A stretch of DNA of 11,193 nt from a virus, in the UHGV virus genome UHGV-1649846; one strand, written 5' to 3'. The translations under genes and the position numbers were made by a program. This document shows, in pieces, positions 1 to 8,454 of this stretch. Numbering within the stretch: position 1 is the stretch's first letter; each line of letters opens with the position of its first letter. A model generated the notes under the pieces. That model did no database searches and was not told the DNA's origin. It saw nothing but the letters and a program-made list of their open reading frames with translations.

Positions 1-505
1 GCACCGAGGCGTCGCATTCTTCAGATGGTTCAACCCTTAAGTTAGCGCTTATGGGAGAAATCCCCGCAACCTCTGATGTATTATGCATCCTCAACGCAGC
101 CACAGTTAACCTGATTGGCGGGTTTACTTCATCTGTAAATATTTTTATAAAAATAATGCCCACGCACAGCATAAAACAAAAAGTATTACAGATAAAAAAG
201 GAACGTAATGTGCAGATTTGTTGTTTTCCATATTTACTCACCTTAATATGATTAACCCTGATAGGGTTGTTATTTCAGCGGTTTTTAAATGAGATATTAT
301 GGTGATCTGACAAATTTGCATAACATTAAAATTTAATTTGTCTAACCGCTTTTAATAATAAGCGTTGTATTTTATCCCAGCAATCTATTGTTTGATTTTT
401 ATTCCATCAATGTGGGGGCTTTACACTGGAACCAGTTTATTTATACTTTATACGTCAGCCTGAACAACTGGCATCTGCTGCACTGCGCCATCGAGAGATT
501 GAGAA

Positions 506-1105
506 ATGGCGCATATACAACTGGTCAAACAAACTTCTTCTGGTTTACTTCTCCCGGCGACGCCGGAGAGTTGCGATTTTCTGCATCAAATCAAAATAGG
601 TGAGTGGATACACGGAGACTTTAAGCGTGTGCGTAACTACGCATTCCACAAGCGTTTTTTCAAACTCCTGCAACTGGGATTCGATTACTGGACTCCGGTC
701 GGTGGGGCGATCACGCCTCGCGAACGAGAACTGCTGTCTGGTTTCGTTGATTACCTGTGCGAATCAGTTGGTCGGGAACACACGCCAGCCCTGAGTGATG
801 CCGCAGAGCAATACCTTAACACCGTTGCGACTCGTAGAACCCGGGATACGGCGTTGCTAAAGTCGTTTGAGGCTTTCCGCGAGTGGGTAACCATTCAGGC
901 CGGATTTTACACCGAGCATATTTATCCGGACGGTAGCCGTGGGCGTCGGGCAAAATCCATCGCTTTTGCGAATATGGACGAAGTCGAGTTTCAGCAGGTT
1001 TATAAATCTGTACTGAATGTGCTGTGGAACTGGATTCTGTTCCGTAAATTCTCCTCTCAGGAGGAAGTTGAAAATGTGGCCGCACAACTACTGGAGTTTG
1101 CGTAA
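506..1105 (+). CDS. DUF1367-family nin-region protein (YdfU-like), function unknown
   Basis: 199-aa ATG ORF. Its stop overlaps the next start (TAATG at 1103-1107), indicating translational coupling. The sequence (MAHIQLVKQTSSGLLLPATPESCDFL...) is recognised from memory as the DUF1367 family found upstream of Q in lambdoid prophages. The antisense ORFs 816-1087 look spurious. Confidence 0.85.
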   Translation: MAHIQLVKQTSSGLLLPATPESCDFLHQIKIGEWIHGDFKRVRNYAFHKRFFKLLQLGFDYWTPVGGAITPRERELLSGFVDYLCESVGREHTPALSDAAEQYLNTVATRRTRDTALLKSFEAFREWVTIQAGFYTEHIYPDGSRGRRAKSIAFANMDEVEFQQVYKSVLNVLWNWILFRKFSSQEEVENVAAQLLEFA

Positions 1106-1395
1106 TGGTGAATTTACGTAAAGCGGCTAAAGGCCAGATGTGCCAGATCAGAATCCCTGGCTACTACAATCACAATCCCGAAACCTCTGTGCTGGCGCAT
1201 TACAGGCTGGCGGGGACGTGCGGAACAGCGACAAAACCACATGATATGCAGGCGGCGATAGCCTGTAGCTCATGCCACGATCTAATCGACGGGCGGGTAA
1301 AAACCAGCGATTACACCAAAGAAGAATTGCGCCTGATGCATGCTGAAGGGGTTTTTCGCACACAAGAAATCTGGAGAAAGAAAGGTCATTTATGA
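1105..1395 (+). CDS. YbcO-like DUF1364 protein (putative Zn/Cys-containing nuclease-like nin protein)
   Basis: 96-aa ORF. The N-terminus MVNLRKAAKGQMCQIRIPGYYNHNPETSVLAHYRL and the ACSSCHD motif resemble E. coli DLP12 YbcO as I recall it. It is coupled on both sides (TAATG upstream, ATGA at 1392-1395 downstream). Confidence 0.85.
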   Translation: MVNLRKAAKGQMCQIRIPGYYNHNPETSVLAHYRLAGTCGTATKPHDMQAAIACSSCHDLIDGRVKTSDYTKEELRLMHAEGVFRTQEIWRKKGHL

Positions 1396-1934
1396 TTTAC
1401 CCAACGAATACAGGAAAAAGCGGAGAACACCTTCGCCTCACCACGCTGGAAAGTGTCTGGATTCAGGGAAAACTACGTATGTGGGGGCGCTGGTCGTATA
1501 TTGGCGGTGGCAGGTCAGGGAATATGTTCAATCAGTTGTTGGCATCCAAAAAACTGACGAAAACAGCCATTAATGAAGCCCTGCGCAGAATGAAAAAAGC
1601 GGGAATAGAGAAAGCTGAGCTGGAAGCGTTTTTGCGAGAGATGATCAACGGCAAGCAAAAGAGCTGGCTGGCGCATTGTACTGATGCAGAGGCGTTATGT
1701 ATTGATCGAGTCATAAGTGAGGTGCTGGCAGAGCATCCAGGATTGATTTGCATTCTCCGGCAACGCTATGAAGGGCGGGGGATGACTAAGCGCAAAATGG
1801 CTGAATTGCTAAATGATGCACACCCAGAGTGGTGTTTTAGCACATGCGAAAAACGGATTGCTAATTGGTTAGCTGTTGCTGAGTATGCCCTACATATTCC
1901 CATGCGTGAATCATTTGCTGAGAAAATGGCTTGA
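1392..1934 (+). CDS. putative late-gene antiterminator, Q-like (DUF1133-type)
   Basis: 180-aa ORF with an ATGA overlap to the upstream gene. It is the last gene before a strong terminator and the lysis region. It contains a MWGRWS motif reminiscent of the ERWGAWA motif of 21/82-type Q proteins. The assignment rests on position and a weak motif recollection. Confidence 0.65.
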   Translation: MIYPTNTGKSGEHLRLTTLESVWIQGKLRMWGRWSYIGGGRSGNMFNQLLASKKLTKTAINEALRRMKKAGIEKAELEAFLREMINGKQKSWLAHCTDAEALCIDRVISEVLAEHPGLICILRQRYEGRGMTKRKMAELLNDAHPEWCFSTCEKRIANWLAVAEYALHIPMRESFAEKMA

Positions 1935-2011
1935 TTTCTTACGTATAAACTGCTTCAATTTTGCTATGCTTCGCAAAGCTGTATCGCGAGGCGGATTGCA
2001 GACATGGACAT

Positions 2012-2044
2012 CGTAAAAAAACCGCTTAATGCGGTTTTTTTACG
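2012..2044 (+). terminator. rho-independent terminator, tR'-like, symmetric (bidirectional)
   Basis: cgtAAAAAAACCGC-ttaat-GCGGTTTTTTTacg: a GC stem flanked by an A7 run and a T7 run, about 80 nt after the Q-like stop. This is the expected place for the terminator that Q-modified RNA polymerase reads through. Confidence 0.75.
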
Positions 2045-2360
2045 TCAGGAAAGCAGGGGAGAATGCTGCTAGTTGGGCAACTGGTCTTTCTGCTCCAAAT
2101 TATAACAGAGACCAGTTATAGTTTCGGTGCTGTGTTTTTTTACAATATTGTGATAACACATTGCTGGCGGGAGTTTTGATATTTCTTGGCAGGGGCTGAT
2201 GATGCGTTATCCTGATGTCGTCAACTCATATAAAATGAGATGAGAGATCATTGCAGGGTGGTTTGTAATTCGCTGTTTAGCGGGACAATATGTTGTCTGA
2301 TACAAGACACCCGACGCCTCAGATTACTATAATAAAGACGAAGCATCCTTTGTATTGACC

Positions 2361-2386
2361 AACCGCCTGTTTAGGCGGTTCTTTTT
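2361..2386 (+). terminator. rho-independent terminator
   Basis: aaccgcct (2361-2368) / gttt loop / aggcggtt (2373-2380): a perfect 8-bp stem followed by cttttt. Confidence 0.6.
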
Positions 2387-2709
2387 GGGCTGGTTTATTG
2401 TATGCCAAATGATTATTAAAAAGGTTGTGTTAATAACAAAATCCGAAATAATATGCCTGCATATTTTTATCTTGCTTATATTCTGCATATTGTGCATAGC
2501 AGGCTCATCCCTGCAATCAAAACTGTATGATGAGTATTTTTTGTTTTCCTTTTTTCCAGTCATCTGATGATGACCTGCTTCTTTTTAATCCGGATCGACA
2601 TCAGTTTTTTAAGATAATTCCTGCGAGTTATATGCATAAATGCCACAAACTCCGCATTTTATGTGGTTGGGAGTTGCCGGGCGCGCAGTGAGTTTGCTAA
2701 GAAAACTCC

Positions 2710-2814
2710 TGCATGGTGAATCCCCCTGTGCGGTGGGGTGATACCATTAACCTTTTCTGTCGCCGACAGGTATCACGAACATTTTGTTCACCGGGAGGCA
2801 CCCGGCACCATGTA
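2710..2814 (+). ncRNA. candidate structured RNA element (cloverleaf-like, non-canonical); function unknown
   Basis: GC-rich island in an AT-rich spacer. Closing helix catggtg 2712-2718 / caccatg 2806-2812. Inner helices: C-run 2722-2726 / G-run 2735-2738; gtgatacc 2738-2745 / ggtatcac 2769-2776; gaac 2777-2780 / gttc 2786-2789; ccggg 2791-2795 / cccgg 2801-2805. The helices abut with 0-1 nt junctions. There is no canonical T-loop, so it is not a normal tRNA. The stems are short and could arise by chance. Confidence 0.2.
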
Positions 2815-2918
2815 CTTCAATAGATTCTCTCCACATTATGGATATTCTTTCAGAATATCCCACGCAGACTTTGTGTAAATGTTAACAAATGTGCGTTTTA
2901 TTTGATCTGATTCGCTGT

Positions 2919-2948
2919 TTGAGCGTCCAAAACAACGGTATATATAAT
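2919..2948 (+). promoter_or_regulatory. putative sigma70 promoter of the lipoprotein moron
   Basis: -35 TTGAGC (2919-2924), 18-nt spacer, consensus -10 TATAAT (2943-2948), about 30 nt upstream of the ATG at 2978. Predicted by eye only. Confidence 0.4.
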
Positions 2949-2977
2949 CCTTTACTATATGACATATGTGAGGAAAA

Positions 2978-3406
2978 ATGGGTTTTCGTAGCGCATCAAT
3001 TCTTACGTTGATTATTAGTGGGATTATTATCGGGTGCACTGATGCTGTATCGACAAATTATCATGACCGTACATCATATTACTCCGATAAAGCAATAGAG
3101 ACACAGTATGTGAGTTCATCTGAACGTACTTCTGATGTTAGTGAGGATATCCGTCTGTATGCCCATCAAATCAAGAGCGCCATCGAAAAACAGTTCGGGG
3201 ATGCGAGTAAGTATTCAGGAAAAGAGTGTACACTGAGAATGCATATGGCCCCGAATGGCCTTCTACTGGAGGTTAAAAGAGAAAGTGGAGACCTCGATTT
3301 ATGTCGTGAAGCGATGAATGCGATAAAGAATGCTGATATACCTGCCCCCCCTTCGCCGGAAGTATATAAAGTATTTCAAAATGGGGTGCTGGATTTTAAA
3401 CCCTGA
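2978..3406 (+). CDS. lipoprotein with TolA C-terminal (domain III)-like domain
   Basis: 142-aa ATG ORF with SD GAGGA just upstream. Signal peptide plus lipobox MGFRSASILTLIISGIIIG|C. The C-terminal ~85 aa aligns without gaps to the C-terminus of E. coli TolA as I recall it (QIKSAIE, CTLR, APxGxLL, GDxxLC, IPxPPS, VYxVF, terminal LDFKP). Confidence 0.85.
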   Translation: MGFRSASILTLIISGIIIGCTDAVSTNYHDRTSYYSDKAIETQYVSSSERTSDVSEDIRLYAHQIKSAIEKQFGDASKYSGKECTLRMHMAPNGLLLEVKRESGDLDLCREAMNAIKNADIPAPPSPEVYKVFQNGVLDFKP

Positions 3407-3556
3407 TATTTATTGTTTTGTAATAAACGGTTTCGGCTTAGGTTTGTTCTGACACAGCTACGGCACTGAGCTAAATTTAGCGGATAGTCAGCTCTGAGCC
3501 AGTGGCGGACGTAACAACTACTATTGCTGAGATTTTAATGGATTGAGGAGCAAGAA

Positions 3557-3952
3557 GTGGGATTAAAGAAAATCGTTATGTTGACTTTTTGGGTCGGTTT
3601 TGTTGCGGGATGCACACCTTTACACCCTTCAGATTGCCACAAAACTACTGCTACAGGTAGTTGCAGTTCAGGACGCTGGGATGATCAGGATGAATGGGGG
3701 GCGCAAGCGCGGGGAATCAGAGCTGCAATTAATGCCAAACTTGATGAGCCGCATAACTGGAAAGGGAAAAAATGCAGGTTGCATATGGAATTCTCTCAGG
3801 ATGGCACGGCGTTAAAAATATCTACCAGTAACGGTGATAAAGCCTATTGCGAAGCGATAAAGTCCGCAGCTCATAAAGCCAAATTTCCGGCCTTCAACAA
3901 TCCGGAAGTCTACAGAGATTTTCAGAAATCTGGCTTTGACATGCGAGGTTAG
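3557..3952 (+). CDS. second, diverged TolA domain III-like lipoprotein
   Basis: 131-aa ORF with a GTG start 6 nt after SD GAGGAG. Signal peptide plus lipobox MGLKKIVMLTFWVGFVAG|C. The C-terminus keeps the TolA-III skeleton seen in the upstream paralogue (GKKCRL...DG...GDxxYCEA...A...P...EVYxxF) and both conserved Cys. Confidence 0.8.
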   Translation: MGLKKIVMLTFWVGFVAGCTPLHPSDCHKTTATGSCSSGRWDDQDEWGAQARGIRAAINAKLDEPHNWKGKKCRLHMEFSQDGTALKISTSNGDKAYCEAIKSAAHKAKFPAFNNPEVYRDFQKSGFDMRG

Positions 3953-4077
3953 CTCTTCAATTACTATATCTCATTCATAGCAAACTGACAGATTTGATGA
4001 TGTTCTATATACGAAACCTGTGATGTCAAGTCTGAGCTAATACAAATAAACATAATATCAGAGAAATACATTTTATT

Positions 4078-4101
4078 AGCTCGCTACGGCGAGCTTTTTA
4101 T
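4078..4101 (+). terminator. rho-independent terminator closing the lipoprotein moron
   Basis: agctcgc (4078-4084) / tacg / gcgagct (4089-4095), followed by ttttat. Confidence 0.7.
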
Positions 4102-4203
4102 ATTGCATCGTCTCCAGCATATATATCAATTAAGGCTCTGATTGATGTGTCTGAAAGCCTACACATAATAACTATGCCATCCGTTCCGTGCGGAGGTGAG
4201 GCT

Positions 4204-4419
4204 ATGAAATCCATGGACAAAATTTCAACAGGCATTGCCTACGGCACCTCCGCAGGCAGTGCTGGCTACTGGTTTTTACAGTTGCTCGATAGAGTAACTC
4301 CGTCACAGTGGGCTGCAATCGGTGTGCTGGGTAGTCTGGTATTTGGCCTGCTGACGTACCTGACAAACCTTTATTTCAAGATTAAAGAAGATAAGCGCAA
4401 GGCTGCGAGAGGTGAATAA
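4204..4419 (+). CDS. essD: class II holin / pinholin, phage 21 S-type (EssD family), dual-start
   Basis: SD GGAGGTGA lies 4 nt before the ATG at 4204. The 71-aa product [26 protein letters not shown]... is near-identical to E. coli EssD / phage 21 S as recalled. Met1-Lys-Ser-Met4 is the dual-start motif. The longer track ORF from GTG 4147 is not favoured. Confidence 0.9.
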
Positions 4420-4916
4420 TGCCTCCATCATTACGAAAAGTCGTTGCTGCTGCTATTGGTGGCGGAGCAATTGCTATAGCATCAGTGCTAATCACTGGCC
4501 CAAGTGGTAACGATGGTCTGGAAGGTGTCAGCTACATACCATACAAAGATATTGTTGGTGTATGGACTGTATGTCACGGGCATACAGGAAAAGACATCAT
4601 GCTCGGTAAAACGTATACCAAAGCAGAATGCAAAGCCCTCCTGAATAAAGACCTTGCCACGGTCGCCAGACAAATTAACCCGTACATCAAAGTCGATATA
4701 CCGGAAACAATGCGCGGCGCTCTTTACTCATTCGTTTACAACGTGGGTGCTGGCAATTTCAGAACATCGACGCTTCTTCGCAAAATAAACCAGGGCGATA
4801 TCAAAGGCGCATGTGATCAGCTACGTCGCTGGACATATGCTGGCGGTAAGCAATGGAAAGGTCTCATGACTCGTCGTGAGATTGAGCGTGAAATCTGTTT
4901 GTGGGGTCAGCAATGA
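4419..4916 (+). CDS. rrrD: SAR endolysin, phage 21 R-type lysozyme (GH24; RrrD family)
   Basis: 165-aa ORF with a TAATG overlap to the holin gene. The N-terminal Gly/Ala-rich signal-anchor-release segment is [18 protein letters not shown]. The E-x8-D-x5-T catalytic arrangement appears in [16 protein letters not shown]. Near-identical to K-12 RrrD as I recall it. Confidence 0.95.
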
Positions 4917-5377
4917 ACAGAGTAACCGCGATTATCTCCGCTCTGGTTATCTGCATCATCGTCTGCCTGTCATGGGCTGTTAATCATTACCGTGATAACG
5001 CCATTACCTACAAAGCCCAGCGCGACAAAAATGCCAGAGAACTGAAGCTGGCGAACGCGGCAATTACTGACATGCAGATGCGTCAGCGTGATGTTGCTGC
5101 GCTCGATGCAAAATACACGAAGGAGTTAGCTGATGCGAAAGCTGAAAATGATGCTCTGCGTGATGATGTTGCCGCTGGTCGTCGGCGGTTGCACATCAAA
5201 GCAGTCTGTCAGTCAGTGCGTGGAGCCACCACCGCCTCCGGCGTGGATAATGCAGCCTCCCCCCGACTGGCAGACACCGCTGAACGGGATTATTTCACCC
5301 TCCGGGAACGACTGGTAATGATGCAGGCCCAACTTGAAGGTGCTCAGCAATACATAACCGAGCAGTGTTTAAAGTAA
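4913..5377 (+). CDS. rzpR: i-spanin Rz (inner-membrane spanin subunit)
   Basis: ATGA overlap with the endolysin stop. N-terminal [23 protein letters not shown], then a coiled-coil-like Ala/Arg/Asp-rich periplasmic domain. RzpD/RzpR family. The symbol was chosen from synteny with trkG; the DLP12 allele name is rzpD. Confidence 0.9.
5133..5318 (+). CDS. rzoR: o-spanin Rz1 (outer-membrane lipoprotein), embedded out of frame within Rz
   Basis: 61-aa ORF wholly inside Rz in another frame. Lipobox LVVGG|C and a proline-rich mature part [21 protein letters not shown], which is the classic Rz1/RzoD/RzoR architecture. Confidence 0.9.
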
Positions 5378-5514
5378 AATCTTAACTACAATATGATTCA
5401 TTTTGATGATTGTTTCATAAGGAACAGTGAAGTAAGATCTAAGAGGAGTTAAATTTTATACAGTATAATCATAATATTGCAGCAAGGTGGTTATAATTGA
5501 AAGAATATTTAGAT

Positions 5515-6972
5515 ATGAATACATCTCATGTAAGAGTTGTTACTCATATGTGTGGGTTCCTAGTTTGGCTCTATAGTCTTTCAATGTTGCCACCAATGGT
5601 TGTAGCATTGTTTTATAAAGAAAAAAGCCTGTTCGTTTTCTTTATAACTTTCGTTATATTTTTTTGCATTGGTGGCGGAGCGTGGTATACAACTAAGAAA
5701 TCTGGCATTCAATTACGTACCCGTGATGGGTTTATTATAATTGTAATGTTTTGGATTTTGTTTTCTGTTATTAGTGCATTCCCTTTATGGATTGACTCAG
5801 AACTTAATTTAACGTTCATTGATGCTCTGTTTGAAGGGGTTTCTGGAATAACAACAACAGGAGCAACTGTAATTGATGATGTTAGTTCATTACCTCGGGC
5901 ATATTTGTACTATCGGTCACAGTTAAATTTTATAGGTGGTTTAGGAGTTATTGTTCTAGCGGTTGCTGTATTGCCATTATTGGGTATTGGTGGTGCAAAG
6001 CTTTATCAGTCAGAAATGCCGGGGCCATTTAAGGATGACAAACTCACTCCCCGCCTGGCCGATACGTCACGGACACTGTGGATAACTTATTCTTTATTAG
6101 GTATTGCTTGTATTGTCTGTTATAGACTTGCAGGAATGCCTTTGTTTGATGCTATTTGTCACGGGATTTCCACAGTTTCGCTTGGTGGTTTCTCAACTCA
6201 TAGCGAGAGTATCGGATATTTTAATAACTATTTGGTTGAGCTGGTGGCTGGTTCTTTTTCCCTGCTATCGGCTTTCAACTTCACTCTTTGGTATATTGTT
6301 ATTAGCAGGAAAACGATAAAACCTTTAATCAGAGATATTGAACTTCGTTTCTTTCTGTTAATAGCCTTAGGGGTGATCATTGTTACCTCTTTCCAGGTCT
6401 GGCATATAGGTATGTATGACTTGCATGGAAGTTTTATTCATTCGTTTTTTCTTGCCAGCTCCATGCTCACTGATAATGGTTTAGCTACGCAGGATTATGC
6501 AAGTTGGCCCACGCACACGATAGTGTTTTTGCTGTTGTCAAGTTTCTTTGGGGGATGTATAGGTTCAACTTGTGGTGGAATTAAGTCACTTCGATTTCTT
6601 ATACTTTTCAAACAAAGCAAACACGAGATAAATCAGCTTTCTCATCCCAGAGCGTTGTTGAGTGTAAATGTAGGAGGGAAGATAGTTACAGATCGTGTAA
6701 TGAGGTCTGTATGGAGTTTCTTTTTTCTTTATACTCTCTTCACGGTGTTTTTTATACTGGTGTTAAATGGTATGGGATATGATTTTCTTACATCATTTGC
6801 AACAGTGGCTGCATGTATTAATAATATGGGATTAGGTTTTGGGGCTACTGCATCGTCATTCGGAGTGCTTAATGACATTGCAAAATGCTTAATGTGCATA
6901 GCTATGATTCTTGGTCGCCTTGAAATTTATCCTGTTATTATATTGTTTTCAGGTTTTTTTTGGCGCTCCTAA
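5515..6972 (+). CDS. trkG: Trk-system K+ uptake membrane protein TrkG
   Basis: Polytopic membrane ORF. From the ATG at 5515 the product (MNTSHVRVVTHMCGFLVWLYSL..., 485 aa) matches the Rac-prophage TrkG of E. coli K-12 as recalled. The track ORF starts earlier at TTG 5497, which has a better SD (AAGGTGG, 6-nt spacing), so the true start is uncertain. The gene is visibly more AT-rich than its flanks. Confidence 0.95.
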   Translation: MNTSHVRVVTHMCGFLVWLYSLSMLPPMVVALFYKEKSLFVFFITFVIFFCIGGGAWYTTKKSGIQLRTRDGFIIIVMFWILFSVISAFPLWIDSELNLTFIDALFEGVSGITTTGATVIDDVSSLPRAYLYYRSQLNFIGGLGVIVLAVAVLPLLGIGGAKLYQSEMPGPFKDDKLTPRLADTSRTLWITYSLLGIACIVCYRLAGMPLFDAICHGISTVSLGGFSTHSESIGYFNNYLVELVAGSFSLLSAFNFTLWYIVISRKTIKPLIRDIELRFFLLIALGVIIVTSFQVWHIGMYDLHGSFIHSFFLASSMLTDNGLATQDYASWPTHTIVFLLLSSFFGGCIGSTCGGIKSLRFLILFKQSKHEINQLSHPRALLSVNVGGKIVTDRVMRSVWSFFFLYTLFTVFFILVLNGMGYDFLTSFATVAACINNMGLGFGATASSFGVLNDIAKCLMCIAMILGRLEIYPVIILFSGFFWRS

Positions 6973-7058
6973 TATATGGCTGATTTATAATTGTGAGTTT
7001 AATATTATGTTGACTCACTCATTGATCCAATACCTAACTTTACCAGCAACACCTCCGT

Positions 7059-7093
7059 CCCCAGTAGCACTGGCTGCTGGGGTGCGTTTTATT
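7059..7093 (+). terminator. rho-independent terminator after trkG
   Basis: ccccagtagc (7059-7068) / actg / gctgctgggg (7073-7082): a 10-bp stem with one G-U pair, followed by tgcgttttatt. Confidence 0.7.
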
Positions 7094-7109
7094 CATAAAG
7101 CAAGGCTGT

Positions 7110-7838
7110 ATGAGCGAGAAATTAAAGATAGTCTATCGCCCATTACAAGAATTGTCACCGTATGCGCACAACGCCAGGACGCACAGTACTGAGCAGGTGG
7201 CACAACTGGTAGAAAGTATTAAGCAATTCGGCTGGACTAATCCGGTGCTGATTGACGAAAAGGGCGAAATTATTGCGGGTCACGGTCGTGTTATGGCGGC
7301 TGAAATGCTCAAAATGGATTCTGTTCCGGTCATTGTTCTGTCTGGCCTGACGGATGAGCAGAAAAAGGCGTACCGCCTGGCAGATAATCGCCTGCCGATG
7401 AATGCTGGCTGGGATGAAGATCTGTTGCGGATGGAGCTGTCGGACCTAATCAATGCTGATTTTGATGTCTCCCTGACAGGCTTCATCCCGACAGAAATTG
7501 ATGAACTGTTGACGGATGTTTTGCCCGGTACCGGACGTTGCGTCGTGCTGGCTATACCGGGAAAATTTTTATCGTTGTTGATGATGAAGATAAGACACGG
7601 CATCAGTACATGGCTGAATTTGGTGAACAGGTGCTGGTGTTTTCCAAAGCCGATATCGCCAGTCGTTTTGACGAAGCCGATAATTTCTGTGACCGCCGCT
7701 CAATTTTTTACGCCCGTAATGCCTGTTTCGACCTGGCAAAACTGGTCGGGTGTAAATACTTCATTCAGCTCGATGATGATTATCACGAGTTCCAGTTTCG
7801 GGTGGATCGCAACTATGACCAGGCCTATTTTCCGATAA
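7110..7838 (+). pseudogene. ynaK: ParB-like nuclease-domain protein (YnaK-like), 3'-truncated and fused out of frame to downstream DNA
   Basis: The first ~134 aa (MSEKLKIVYRPLQELSPYAHNARTH...IIAGHGRVMAA...LADNRL...EIDELL) look like a ParB/Srx-type N-terminal domain and match K-12 YnaK as recalled. After about nt 7512 the reading frame yields non-protein-like sequence that overlaps the better frame of the next fragment. Confidence 0.7.
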
Positions 7839-8185
7839 GGAAACTGGATGCGATCCTTTCTGAAATGCTGGCGTACTACGAATCAATACCTGCTCTTTCC
7901 ATCGCTATGTCGCAGGGCGGGGATTTTCTTGGTGACAATGGCGGCCATGCTTCGTGGGTGAAACGCAAGGCAATGAACAGCTTTATCTGTTCGGTTGATC
8001 GACCGTTCTCATTCATGGGGCGCATTAACGAGGATGTGAATACGTACACGAATCTCGGTCGCTGTGGTGAATTGTTTATGACGATCGGTGCTGTCCAGTT
8101 AGGGCAGAAACAGACGCAGAAAAACAGCGGCGGAATGACCGAGCTGTATCTGGATTCCGGAATCAGCGAAGGAACTGGGTATTGA
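7505..8185 (+). pseudogene. glycosyltransferase-like (GT-A style, DxD) gene fragment lacking its 5' and 3' ends
   Basis: The frame opens at 7505 just after two stops and has no credible start (the track uses TTG 7538, which has no SD). It contains IFIVVDDED, FIQLDDDY (DxD-like) and RINEDVNTY motifs typical of nucleotide-sugar transferases. Protein-like sequence ends at ...TELYLDSG (~8160), then 7 junk codons and a stop. The family assignment is tentative. Confidence 0.5.
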
Positions 8186-8435
8186 TGTTCGCGATATTTC
8201 CCCGGCTGAGCGGGCCAGCATGGATGGCGTGGTGGCCGGAGATACAACCTACAGGGAATGGTTTTTGCGTCAGCCTTACACCAGACAAAAACAGATTGTG
8301 GGGGAAACCCGAGCAAAGCTGATTCGGGATGGTGGTATGTCGCCAGATGAATTTTACACCGATAAAGGCGAATGGCTGACGCTGAAGCAGCTCCGTGAGC
8401 GTGATGCACAGGTATTCAGAAAAGCAGGGATTTAA
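8139..8435 (+). pseudogene. C-terminal remnant of a phage minor head / head-morphogenesis protein (Mu F / SPP1 gp7-like)
   Basis: The frame is open only from 8139. The sequence from ~8160 (ESAKELGIDVRDISPAERASMDGVVAGDTTYREWFLRQPYTRQKQIVGETRAKLIRDGGMSPDEFYTDKGEWLTLKQLRERD...) resembles the conserved C-terminal end of this family as I recall it. There is no N-terminal ~300 aa and no RBS. Confidence 0.5.
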
Positions 8436-8454
8436 ATAAATCATTTATTACAAC

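Follow-up and report, generated by a model that had tools for sequence, protein, structure and literature searches.

Two predicted lipoproteins with a TolA domain III fold in a prophage late region: candidate decoys for TolA ligands

Introduction

Why would a prophage carry, between its late antiterminator gene and its lysis genes, two small genes for proteins that end in the manner of the host protein TolA? The question is raised by ORF1 (2978-3406) and ORF2 (3557-3952), which are adjacent on the + strand of the virus genome UHGV-1649846; the window denotes the whole 11,193-nt stretch that was analysed, and the genes and signals of the locus located below are on this same strand. Both proteins carry the fold of the C-terminal domain III of TolA (TolA-III) behind a predicted lipoprotein signal. 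The favoured explanation of the two-gene cassette, which is a tentative one, is that its products may serve as outer-membrane-tethered decoys for TolA ligands. Three other explanations are weighed against it: interference with the Tol-Pal system, an auxiliary role in the envelope, and loss of function.

Identity and fold of the two proteins

ORF1 encodes 142 amino acids from an ATG start, with a GAGG Shine-Dalgarno sequence at 2970-2973, and ORF2 encodes 131 amino acids from a GTG start, with GAGGAG at 3545-3550. The predicted lipoprotein signal of ORF1 (residues 1-19, MGFRSASILTLIISGIIIG) comprises R4, a run of 14 hydrophobic residues and the lipobox IIG-C20, after which the sequence continues T-D; a disordered linker extends from residue 21 to about residue 51 and is followed by the TolA-III-like domain at residues 52-142 (nt 3131-3403). 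ORF2 is built to the same plan, with a signal at residues 1-18 (MGLKKIVMLTFWVGFVAG; K4 and K5, 12 hydrophobic residues, VAG-C19, then T-P), a conserved Cys-bearing linker from residue 20 to about residue 41, and the TolA-III-like domain at residues 42-131 (nt 3680-3949). Both lipoboxes were read from the sequence by a pattern of positive n-region, hydrophobic h-region and [LVI][ASTVI][GAS]C at about residue 15-35, and a lipobox is retained in every intact member of the ORF1 and ORF2 families. Lipoproteins without Asp at position +2 after the lipidated Cys are sorted to the outer membrane; the +2 residue is Thr in ORF1 and ORF2 and Ala in many homologues, not Asp, and by this rule the outer membrane is the predicted destination of both proteins. 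The reading frames, Shine-Dalgarno sequences, lipoprotein signals and non-Asp +2 residues had all been set out in a preliminary description of the locus made from sequence alone, and are borne out here.

Against the Pfam TolA_C profile (PF06519, gathering cut-off 25 bits), ORF1 scores 82.6 bits (E 2.4e-23) and ORF2 54.6 bits (E 1.3e-14). In phmmer searches of the PDB, residues 55-142 of ORF1 align without gaps to TolA residues 334-421 (E ~5e-28) and are identical at 52 of 88 positions (59%), including both Cys and the terminal LDFKP. The corresponding match of ORF2, residues 51-129 with TolA 341-419, is likewise gap-free (E 5e-9) with 27/79 identities (34%). The preliminary description had proposed just such an ungapped ORF1 match, more than half identical and embracing both Cys and LDFKP, from a TolA sequence that it quoted; as far as it was quoted, that sequence agrees with the PDB chain, and it shares 50/82 identities with ORF1.

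AlphaFold2 models of the two proteins have pLDDT values above 90 at residues 52-142 of ORF1 and 42-131 of ORF2, with the N-terminal part disordered in each case. Both show the TolA-III α/β fold of three strands and three helices, and the leading Foldseek matches are 3qdp, 3qdr, 2x9a and 1tol, at TM 0.85-0.96. The best match of ORF1 is TolA-III in 2x9a_B (TM 0.96, rmsd 0.7 Å) and that of ORF2 is TolA-III in 3qdp (TM 0.92, rmsd 1.1 Å), and thus Pfam, PDB and Foldseek comparisons all support the proposed kinship with TolA-III for both ORFs. The disulfide pair of TolA, C363/C388, has its counterparts in C84/C109 of ORF1 and C73/C98 of ORF2. Both Cys are invariant in the alignment of the ORF1 and ORF2 families, which fits a periplasmic protein.

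Nevertheless, neither protein is TolA. The N-terminal transmembrane anchor and the long helical domain II of TolA are absent from both, their place being taken by the predicted cleavable lipoprotein signal and a disordered linker of 20-30 residues, and the genes lie outside a tolQRA-tolB-pal cluster, with a Q-like gene and the lysis genes of the phage as their neighbours. With the TolA equivalog profile NF007065, ORF1 (107.8 bits) and ORF2 (53.7 bits) remain below the cut-off of 213 and align with only the last ~95 profile positions. With TIGR02794, ORF1 exceeds the cut-off of 59.45 at 75.6 bits, through the C-terminal part only, and ORF2 falls below it at 47.2 bits. ORF1 and ORF2 are therefore members of the TolA_C domain family, yet not TolA. 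Both also match PHROG 5772 (E 1e-62 and 1e-65), which is labelled 'unknown function', and neither matched any PADLOC defence model at E <= 0.1.

Selection and annotation

The RefSeq/PGAP annotation labels ORF1 'tolA, incomplete, missing N-terminus', that is, as a pseudogene, and if the label were right ORF1 would be a dead tolA fragment and the cassette functionless. Several observations contradict this. ORF1 is intact, has a Shine-Dalgarno sequence and carries a lipoprotein signal where TolA has its anchor; its lipobox is kept in variants of 65-91% identity, and the gene is at least 99% conserved in 775 genomes. Compared with a variant of 66% identity, ORF1 gives a dN/dS of 0.24 over the domain and of 0.155 over its last 42 residues. 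Moreover, identity between ORF1 and real TolA proteins reaches only 55-59%, which argues against a recent tolA fragment; capture of the 3' end of a host tolA gene in recent times was ruled out, as no long TolA representative exceeds 57% identity. The pseudogene reading is refuted by these data together, and the chance that the cassette is without function is minute.

ORF2 is affected by annotation in a different way. Its RefSeq start is the ATG at 3578, 21 nt late, which cuts off the charged n-region of the signal peptide, and its homologues open with MGVKK at the position of the GTG. In the RefSeq record, the stretch so annotated for the two genes is 12267-13073, which corresponds to window 3146-3952. 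The 'tolA pseudogene' label of ORF1 and the late start of ORF2 are probably a systematic misannotation present in hundreds of genomes.

For the two genes overall, dN/dS lies between 0.06 and 0.24, which is purifying selection, and by this measure ORF1 and ORF2 are working genes. ORF2 gives 0.08-0.12 overall when compared with plasmid and chromosomal homologues. Its linker is as constrained as the TolA-III-like domain (dN/dS 0.02-0.1) and is therefore more than a spacer. The linker motif of the ORF2 family, C-x-PLHPS-x-CHKTTATGSCSSGRWDDQDEWG (residues 20-48, nt 3614-3700), is nearly invariant across genera and is disordered in the AlphaFold model, and this near-invariance suggests an unrecognised binding element. 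The linker also holds the two additional Cys that the preliminary description had pointed out, C27 and C36, and these could close a small disulfide loop.

Two lineages within a larger family

The preliminary description regarded the two genes as an old and diverged pair. Read as a local duplication, this view had to be abandoned. ORF1 is 59% identical to TolA but 32% identical to ORF2, which is about equally distant from both; each gene occurs alone elsewhere; and on an IncK2/Z plasmid ORF2 is accompanied by its own upstream 114 nt (nt 3443-3556). Tandem duplication at the locus was ruled out on these grounds, and since ORF1 is closer to TolA and either gene is found without the other, the comparisons identify ORF1 and ORF2 as two independently acquired lineages.

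Genes of the ORF1 type (65-91% identity) were seen in E. coli only. Other lambdoid prophages carry a lone ORF1-type gene in the slot between Q and the holin gene, with an AraC-family regulator on its 5' side, nanS-p-like (SASA/DUF1737) genes on its 3' side and no ORF2 (loci ~6826-7539). Genes of the ORF2 type (78-89% identity) are common in Citrobacter, Enterobacter, Klebsiella oxytoca, Raoultella and Serratia; in Citrobacter, they lie inside an island with arsenic resistance genes. In addition, an ORF2-type copy of 88% identity is present on ~600 plasmids, and on IncI1/B/O and IncK2/Z plasmids it stands directly 3' of the nikA-nikB relaxase genes. Plasmid pO157 of E. coli O157:H7 SS52 has an intact ORF2-type gene in a 2.67-kb fragment (stretch 2876-5546) between hok and toxB. 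This fragment is 99% identical to the 3' end of an IncI-complex nikB with its TolA-like gene, and within it the relaxase gene is truncated and the TolA-like gene kept.

A third lineage of lipoproteins with a TolA-III domain (144 aa, LLITAC|SN ... ALDFRL) is 35% identical to ORF2 and occurs on ~300 mostly Klebsiella plasmids, of which the one inspected, K. pneumoniae pMR0617ctx, is a conjugative IncF plasmid. There the gene follows directly 3' of a gene for a DsbC/G-like thioredoxin-fold protein with a CVYC motif (stretch 5217-6246). A profile search of 1.84 billion representatives returned 598 matches, and the best 148 of these include 77 short proteins (105-165 aa), 58 of which open with a lipobox; many of the short representatives end in LDFKP, LDFKL or LDFRL. 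The combination of lipobox and TolA-III is thus shared by ~58 clusters at 50% identity, and by these searches the family is large and extends well beyond prophages, a point that the preliminary description had missed.

A further possible explanation is an auxiliary envelope role, for example as an outer-membrane-anchored partner of TolB, Pal, CpoB or another periplasmic protein, in which case the genes would be fitness cargo and not defence. In Citrobacter and in several Enterobacter genomes the surroundings of ORF2-type genes are conserved and non-mobile, the very strong purifying selection includes the linker, and a large and diverse family is compatible with such a role. However, the E. coli data examined held no chromosomal copy outside prophages and plasmids, and no conserved partner gene was found beside family members. 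That prophages, IncI-complex plasmids and IncF plasmids have recruited such genes repeatedly and independently points instead to a benefit related to conflict, and an envelope role is considered rather improbable.

Binding surfaces and a possible decoy mechanism

TolB, colicin N and the g3p N1 domain bind TolA-III by backbone β-strand addition at strand β3, where strand propensity counts for more than sequence (PMC4339652). The TolA substitutions D418P and K420P abolish binding and produce a full tol phenotype, and the affinities of TolA are ~1 µM for ColN and g3p and ~40 µM for TolB (PMC4339652). Colicin A uses the opposite face of TolA-III, formed by L375-P380 together with K368, K379 and K396 (PMC3365938). 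The β3 residues L417-D418-F419-K420-P421 of TolA are identical in ORF1 and read F-D-M-R-G in ORF2, where FDMR is a conservative change that forms a strand in the AlphaFold2 model. The colicin A face is mostly retained in ORF1 (LLEVKR, K100, K117) and is charge-reversed in ORF2 (K368E, D377K, K379S, K396H). Judged from these residues, the two proteins probably differ in the ligands that they can bind.

These features would suit decoys for TolA ligands. ORF1 and ORF2 would be exported as lipoproteins and would hold the TolA-III-like domain on a tether of 20-30 residues just below the outer membrane, at the site where group A colicins, with their translocation domains, and filamentous-phage g3p, with its N1 domain, would first emerge. 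There they would present the β-strand-addition surface of TolA (β3, and in ORF1 also the colicin A face) uncoupled from TolQR. As such a copy of TolA-III is not coupled to TolQR, ligands bound to it would be trapped unproductively; held by the decoy and not energised, they would leave the cell tolerant. ORF1 with both faces and ORF2 with β3 only could cover different ligands. Free periplasmic TolAIII reportedly has tol-like effects and confers tolerance to colicins and phage, a finding ascribed to Levengood-Freyermuth in 1993. Soluble periplasmic TolAIII is also described as perturbing Tol function (PMC6195910).

The same logic could apply to the plasmid copies, since conjugative pili would draw filamentous phages that need TolA-III as a co-receptor. 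Filamentous phages use pili as their primary receptors, and phage IF1 attaches to I-type pili. As given in the title of PDB entry 2x9a, the IF1 g3p was crystallised with TolA-III, the co-receptor of IF1. Occurrence on conjugative plasmids and retention of the β3 strand favour the decoy explanation without proving it, and the probability assigned to it is roughly 0.4.

Genomic setting and spread of the cassette

A Rac-like lambdoid prophage harbours the cassette in its late region, where the genes run in the order DUF1367, YbcO, DUF1133/Q-like, a 1-kb non-coding gap, ORF1, ORF2, P21-type holin, lysozyme, Rz/Rz1, trkG and a ynaK-like gene. The DUF1133/Q-like late antiterminator gene (1392-1934) matches Pfam PF06576 (E 3e-106) and, weakly, Phage_antitermQ; immediately 3' of it is a strong terminator (2012-2044; -19.7 kcal/mol, z = -6.4). 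Deeper in the gap is a pR'/tR'-like pair that looks built for Q-dependent antitermination, namely a promoter-like site at 2304-2333 (AAGACA-18-TATAAT) with a terminator ~30 nt on at 2361-2380. An STnc100-family sRNA-like element follows at 2681-2867 (Rfam RF02076, full-length, 83.4 bits, E 4.5e-17), which may be an sRNA or the leader of a late transcript. No tRNA genes were found in the gap between Q and the holin gene. Downstream of the cassette, the P21-type holin gene (essD-like, 4204-4419) matches Pfam PF04971 (E 2e-35). The position of the two genes in the Q-to-holin slot was therefore correctly recognised in the preliminary description, with the Q-like gene upstream and the holin, lysozyme and Rz/Rz1 genes downstream.

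That description also credited the cassette with a promoter and a terminator of its own, and the second of these is the more secure. The intrinsic terminator at 4078-4101, just 5' of the holin gene, has a 7-bp GC-rich stem (4078-4095) and a T run (-13 kcal/mol, z = -4.9), and is convincing. The sigma-70 promoter-like site upstream of ORF1 at 2919-2948 (TTGAGC-18 nt-TATAAT) matches the consensus at 10 of 12 positions. The AT-rich sequence around it contains 11 matches of this quality, where shuffled sequence contains 5.9±2.1, and the site is therefore suggestive only, a lead and not a proof. The spacer between the two ORFs (3407-3556) has a weak promoter-like site at 3449-3477, and folding revealed no terminator or significant RNA structure within it (z = -0.44).

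Near-identical copies of the cassette (at least 99% identity over at least 80% of its length) are present in 775 of 5,426 complete E. coli genomes, and 151 viral contigs of IMG/VR carry it as well. The best 80 of the 151 were used to compare backbones; as these are near-identical copies only, the counts that follow inform on backbones and not on diversity. From the promoter region through the two ORFs and the terminator as far as the holin gene, each element occurs in 76-80 of the 80 loci; the promoter-like site at 2919-2948 is kept (at least 98.7%) in 79 and the holin gene in 76. Among loci with enough flanking sequence, the Q gene of the window is found in 39/73 and its lysozyme gene in 29/63. 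The STnc100 match, found in 74 of the 80, marks the left edge of a mobile block spanning 2690-4420. In phage mEp460_ev081 this block (STnc100, ORF1, ORF2, holin) is present at 97% identity alongside different Q and lysozyme genes. With the cassette constant and the Q and lysozyme modules variable, the cassette behaves as a mosaic, moron-like block that moves with the holin gene between late-region backbones.

The Rac prophage of K-12 MG1655 (NC_000913.3 1419000-1427000), compared with window 1-5400, has lost the Q-like gene, both TolA-III genes, the holin gene and the lysozyme gene. There ydaW leads straight into a truncated rzpR, and trkG and ynaK come after, as in the window. The absence of the cassette from K-12 is probably why it has gone unstudied. 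Around the ynaK-like ParB gene of the window, which RefSeq marks as truncated, several long overlapping ORFs in different frames occupy 7110-8450, and this region looks degraded.

Weighing the decoy explanation against Tol-Pal interference

The late setting of the cassette is the basis of the main rival explanation, in which interference with Tol-Pal is itself the selected function. Produced in quantity from a late transcript that depends on Q, the lipoproteins would bind TolB (or Pal) at the outer membrane, uncouple it from TolA and loosen the outer membrane, and would thereby aid lysis, vesiculation and the release of phage and periplasmic contents. Residence in the late operon and travel with the holin gene accord with this, as does the finding that only terminators overridden by Q separate Q/tR' from ORF1. 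The β3 strand is conserved, and proline substitutions in β3 of TolA that abolish TolB binding give the full tol phenotype (PMC4339652). Furthermore, overproduction of periplasmic TolAIII makes E. coli leaky and has been exploited for protein release, as stated in PMC6195910, which cites Wan & Baneyx 1998. Nevertheless, the phage already possesses a full set of holin, endolysin and Rz/Rz1 genes, and similar genes are found on conjugative plasmids and Enterobacter chromosomes with no lysis genes nearby, where chronic leakiness would be costly. The promoter-like site and terminator of the cassette also suggest expression outside the lytic cycle. On balance, interference is judged unlikely, though it is a better candidate than an envelope role.

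Under the decoy explanation, expression in the lysogen would come from the promoter of the cassette, and read-through by Q-modified polymerase would raise it after induction. Several points weigh against this explanation. A lytic-phase role fits a cassette located inside the late operon beside the holin gene equally well. The promoter-like site at 2919-2948 is no more than a match to the consensus within AT-rich sequence, and ORF1 variants of other prophages have no obvious promoter of their own. The stable chromosomal ORF2-type genes of Enterobacter hint at a housekeeping role in the envelope, and the almost invariant linker of ORF2 suggests a further interaction. Among 50,697 deposited phages, only one, mEp460_ev081, carries ORF1/ORF2 genes. 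A TolA-III decoy should, in addition, also bind TolB, at a cost to envelope integrity; on this last point, ColN and g3p are bound ~40-fold more tightly than TolB, and therefore modest amounts of decoy could trap invaders without collapse of Tol-Pal.

Significance

A broader proposition is that lipid-anchored copies of TolA-III constitute a widespread and unrecognised class of mobile-element immunity proteins that act as mimics of a periplasmic co-receptor. This is a speculative extension, held with less assurance than the decoy explanation of the cassette itself. If it applied, prophages would shield their lysogens from Tol-dependent bacteriocins, IncI-complex and Klebsiella IncF plasmids would offset the cost of pili that attract phages, and the diverged faces of ORF1 and ORF2 would broaden the range of invaders trapped.

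Should the decoy explanation be true, a hidden determinant of tolerance to group A colicins and filamentous phages would be present in about 1/7 of the E. coli strains sequenced, on pO157, and on many plasmids of the IncI complex and of the Klebsiella IncF type. Tolerance of this kind would bear on colicin and phage antimicrobials, on hosts for phage display, and on the survival of conjugative plasmids despite pilus-specific phages. Should interference be true instead, the proteins would be natural modulators of Tol-Pal with relevance to vesicle production and toxin release. Either way, the RefSeq tolA-pseudogene label of ORF1 is wrong in hundreds of genomes. The cassette is well documented at the level of sequence and easily testable, and K-12, which lacks it, offers a clean test strain.

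Comparison with known systems

A literature search, within what could be searched, found no characterisation of the TolA-III lipoprotein family, in keeping with the earlier statement that no characterised prophage-encoded TolA-III lipoprotein was known. Prophages and Tol-Pal are mentioned in PMC9621596 without any reference to this family, and a sentence of PMC11125564 that ties a CP-933O gene to TolA was set aside, as it actually concerns a tail-fibre gene. The search could find no characterised natural example of periplasmic co-receptor mimicry either, a mode of action that is proposed here and that, if the decoy explanation is true, would be added to the known strategies of exclusion.

The closest relative is TolA-III of E. 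coli itself (1TOL, 1S62, 3QDP/3QDR, 2X9A), which ORF1 and ORF2 resemble in fold (TM up to 0.96), disulfide pair, C-terminal β3 (LDFKP in ORF1) and predicted periplasmic location. In contrast to TolA, they have a lipoprotein signal, are encoded on mobile elements and lie outside the tol-pal operon, and because the transmembrane anchor and domain II are missing they would be coupled neither to TolQR nor to the proton motive force. Engineered soluble TolAIII (Levengood-Freyermuth et al. 1993; Wan & Baneyx 1998), which was used in PMC6195910, similarly places a free TolA-III domain in the periplasm, where it competes with native TolA and has tol-like effects such as leakiness. That construct is artificial, soluble and overproduced, whereas ORF1 and ORF2 are natural, predicted to be lipid-anchored, diverged (59% and 34% identity to TolA) and presumably expressed at a low level.

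With the exclusion lipoproteins Llp of T5, Cor of φ80/N15/HK022 and TraT of F, the two proteins have in common that they are small, encoded on mobile elements and envelope-acting, exclusion being a proposal in the case of ORF1 and ORF2. Llp, Cor and TraT mask an outer-membrane receptor (FhuA, OmpA). They are without the TolA fold, comparison with ORF1 and ORF2 revealed no sequence relationship, and in place of masking a receptor ORF1 and ORF2 are proposed to mimic a periplasmic co-receptor. Boeke, Model and Zinder reportedly observed in 1982 that Ff g3p made in an infected cell gives tolerance to colicins and to superinfecting filamentous phage. The g3p-TolA-III interaction would be the target in both cases, in mirror image: in Ff exclusion it is the ligand that occupies the TolA of the host, and under the decoy explanation the ligand would itself be occupied by a TolA-III copy. 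As a genetic element, the cassette resembles the morons found between Q and S in lambdoid phages (stx, nanS-p) and bor/lom, in that it is an extra late-region block with a promoter-like site and a terminator that is swapped between backbones, and it differs from them in its cargo.

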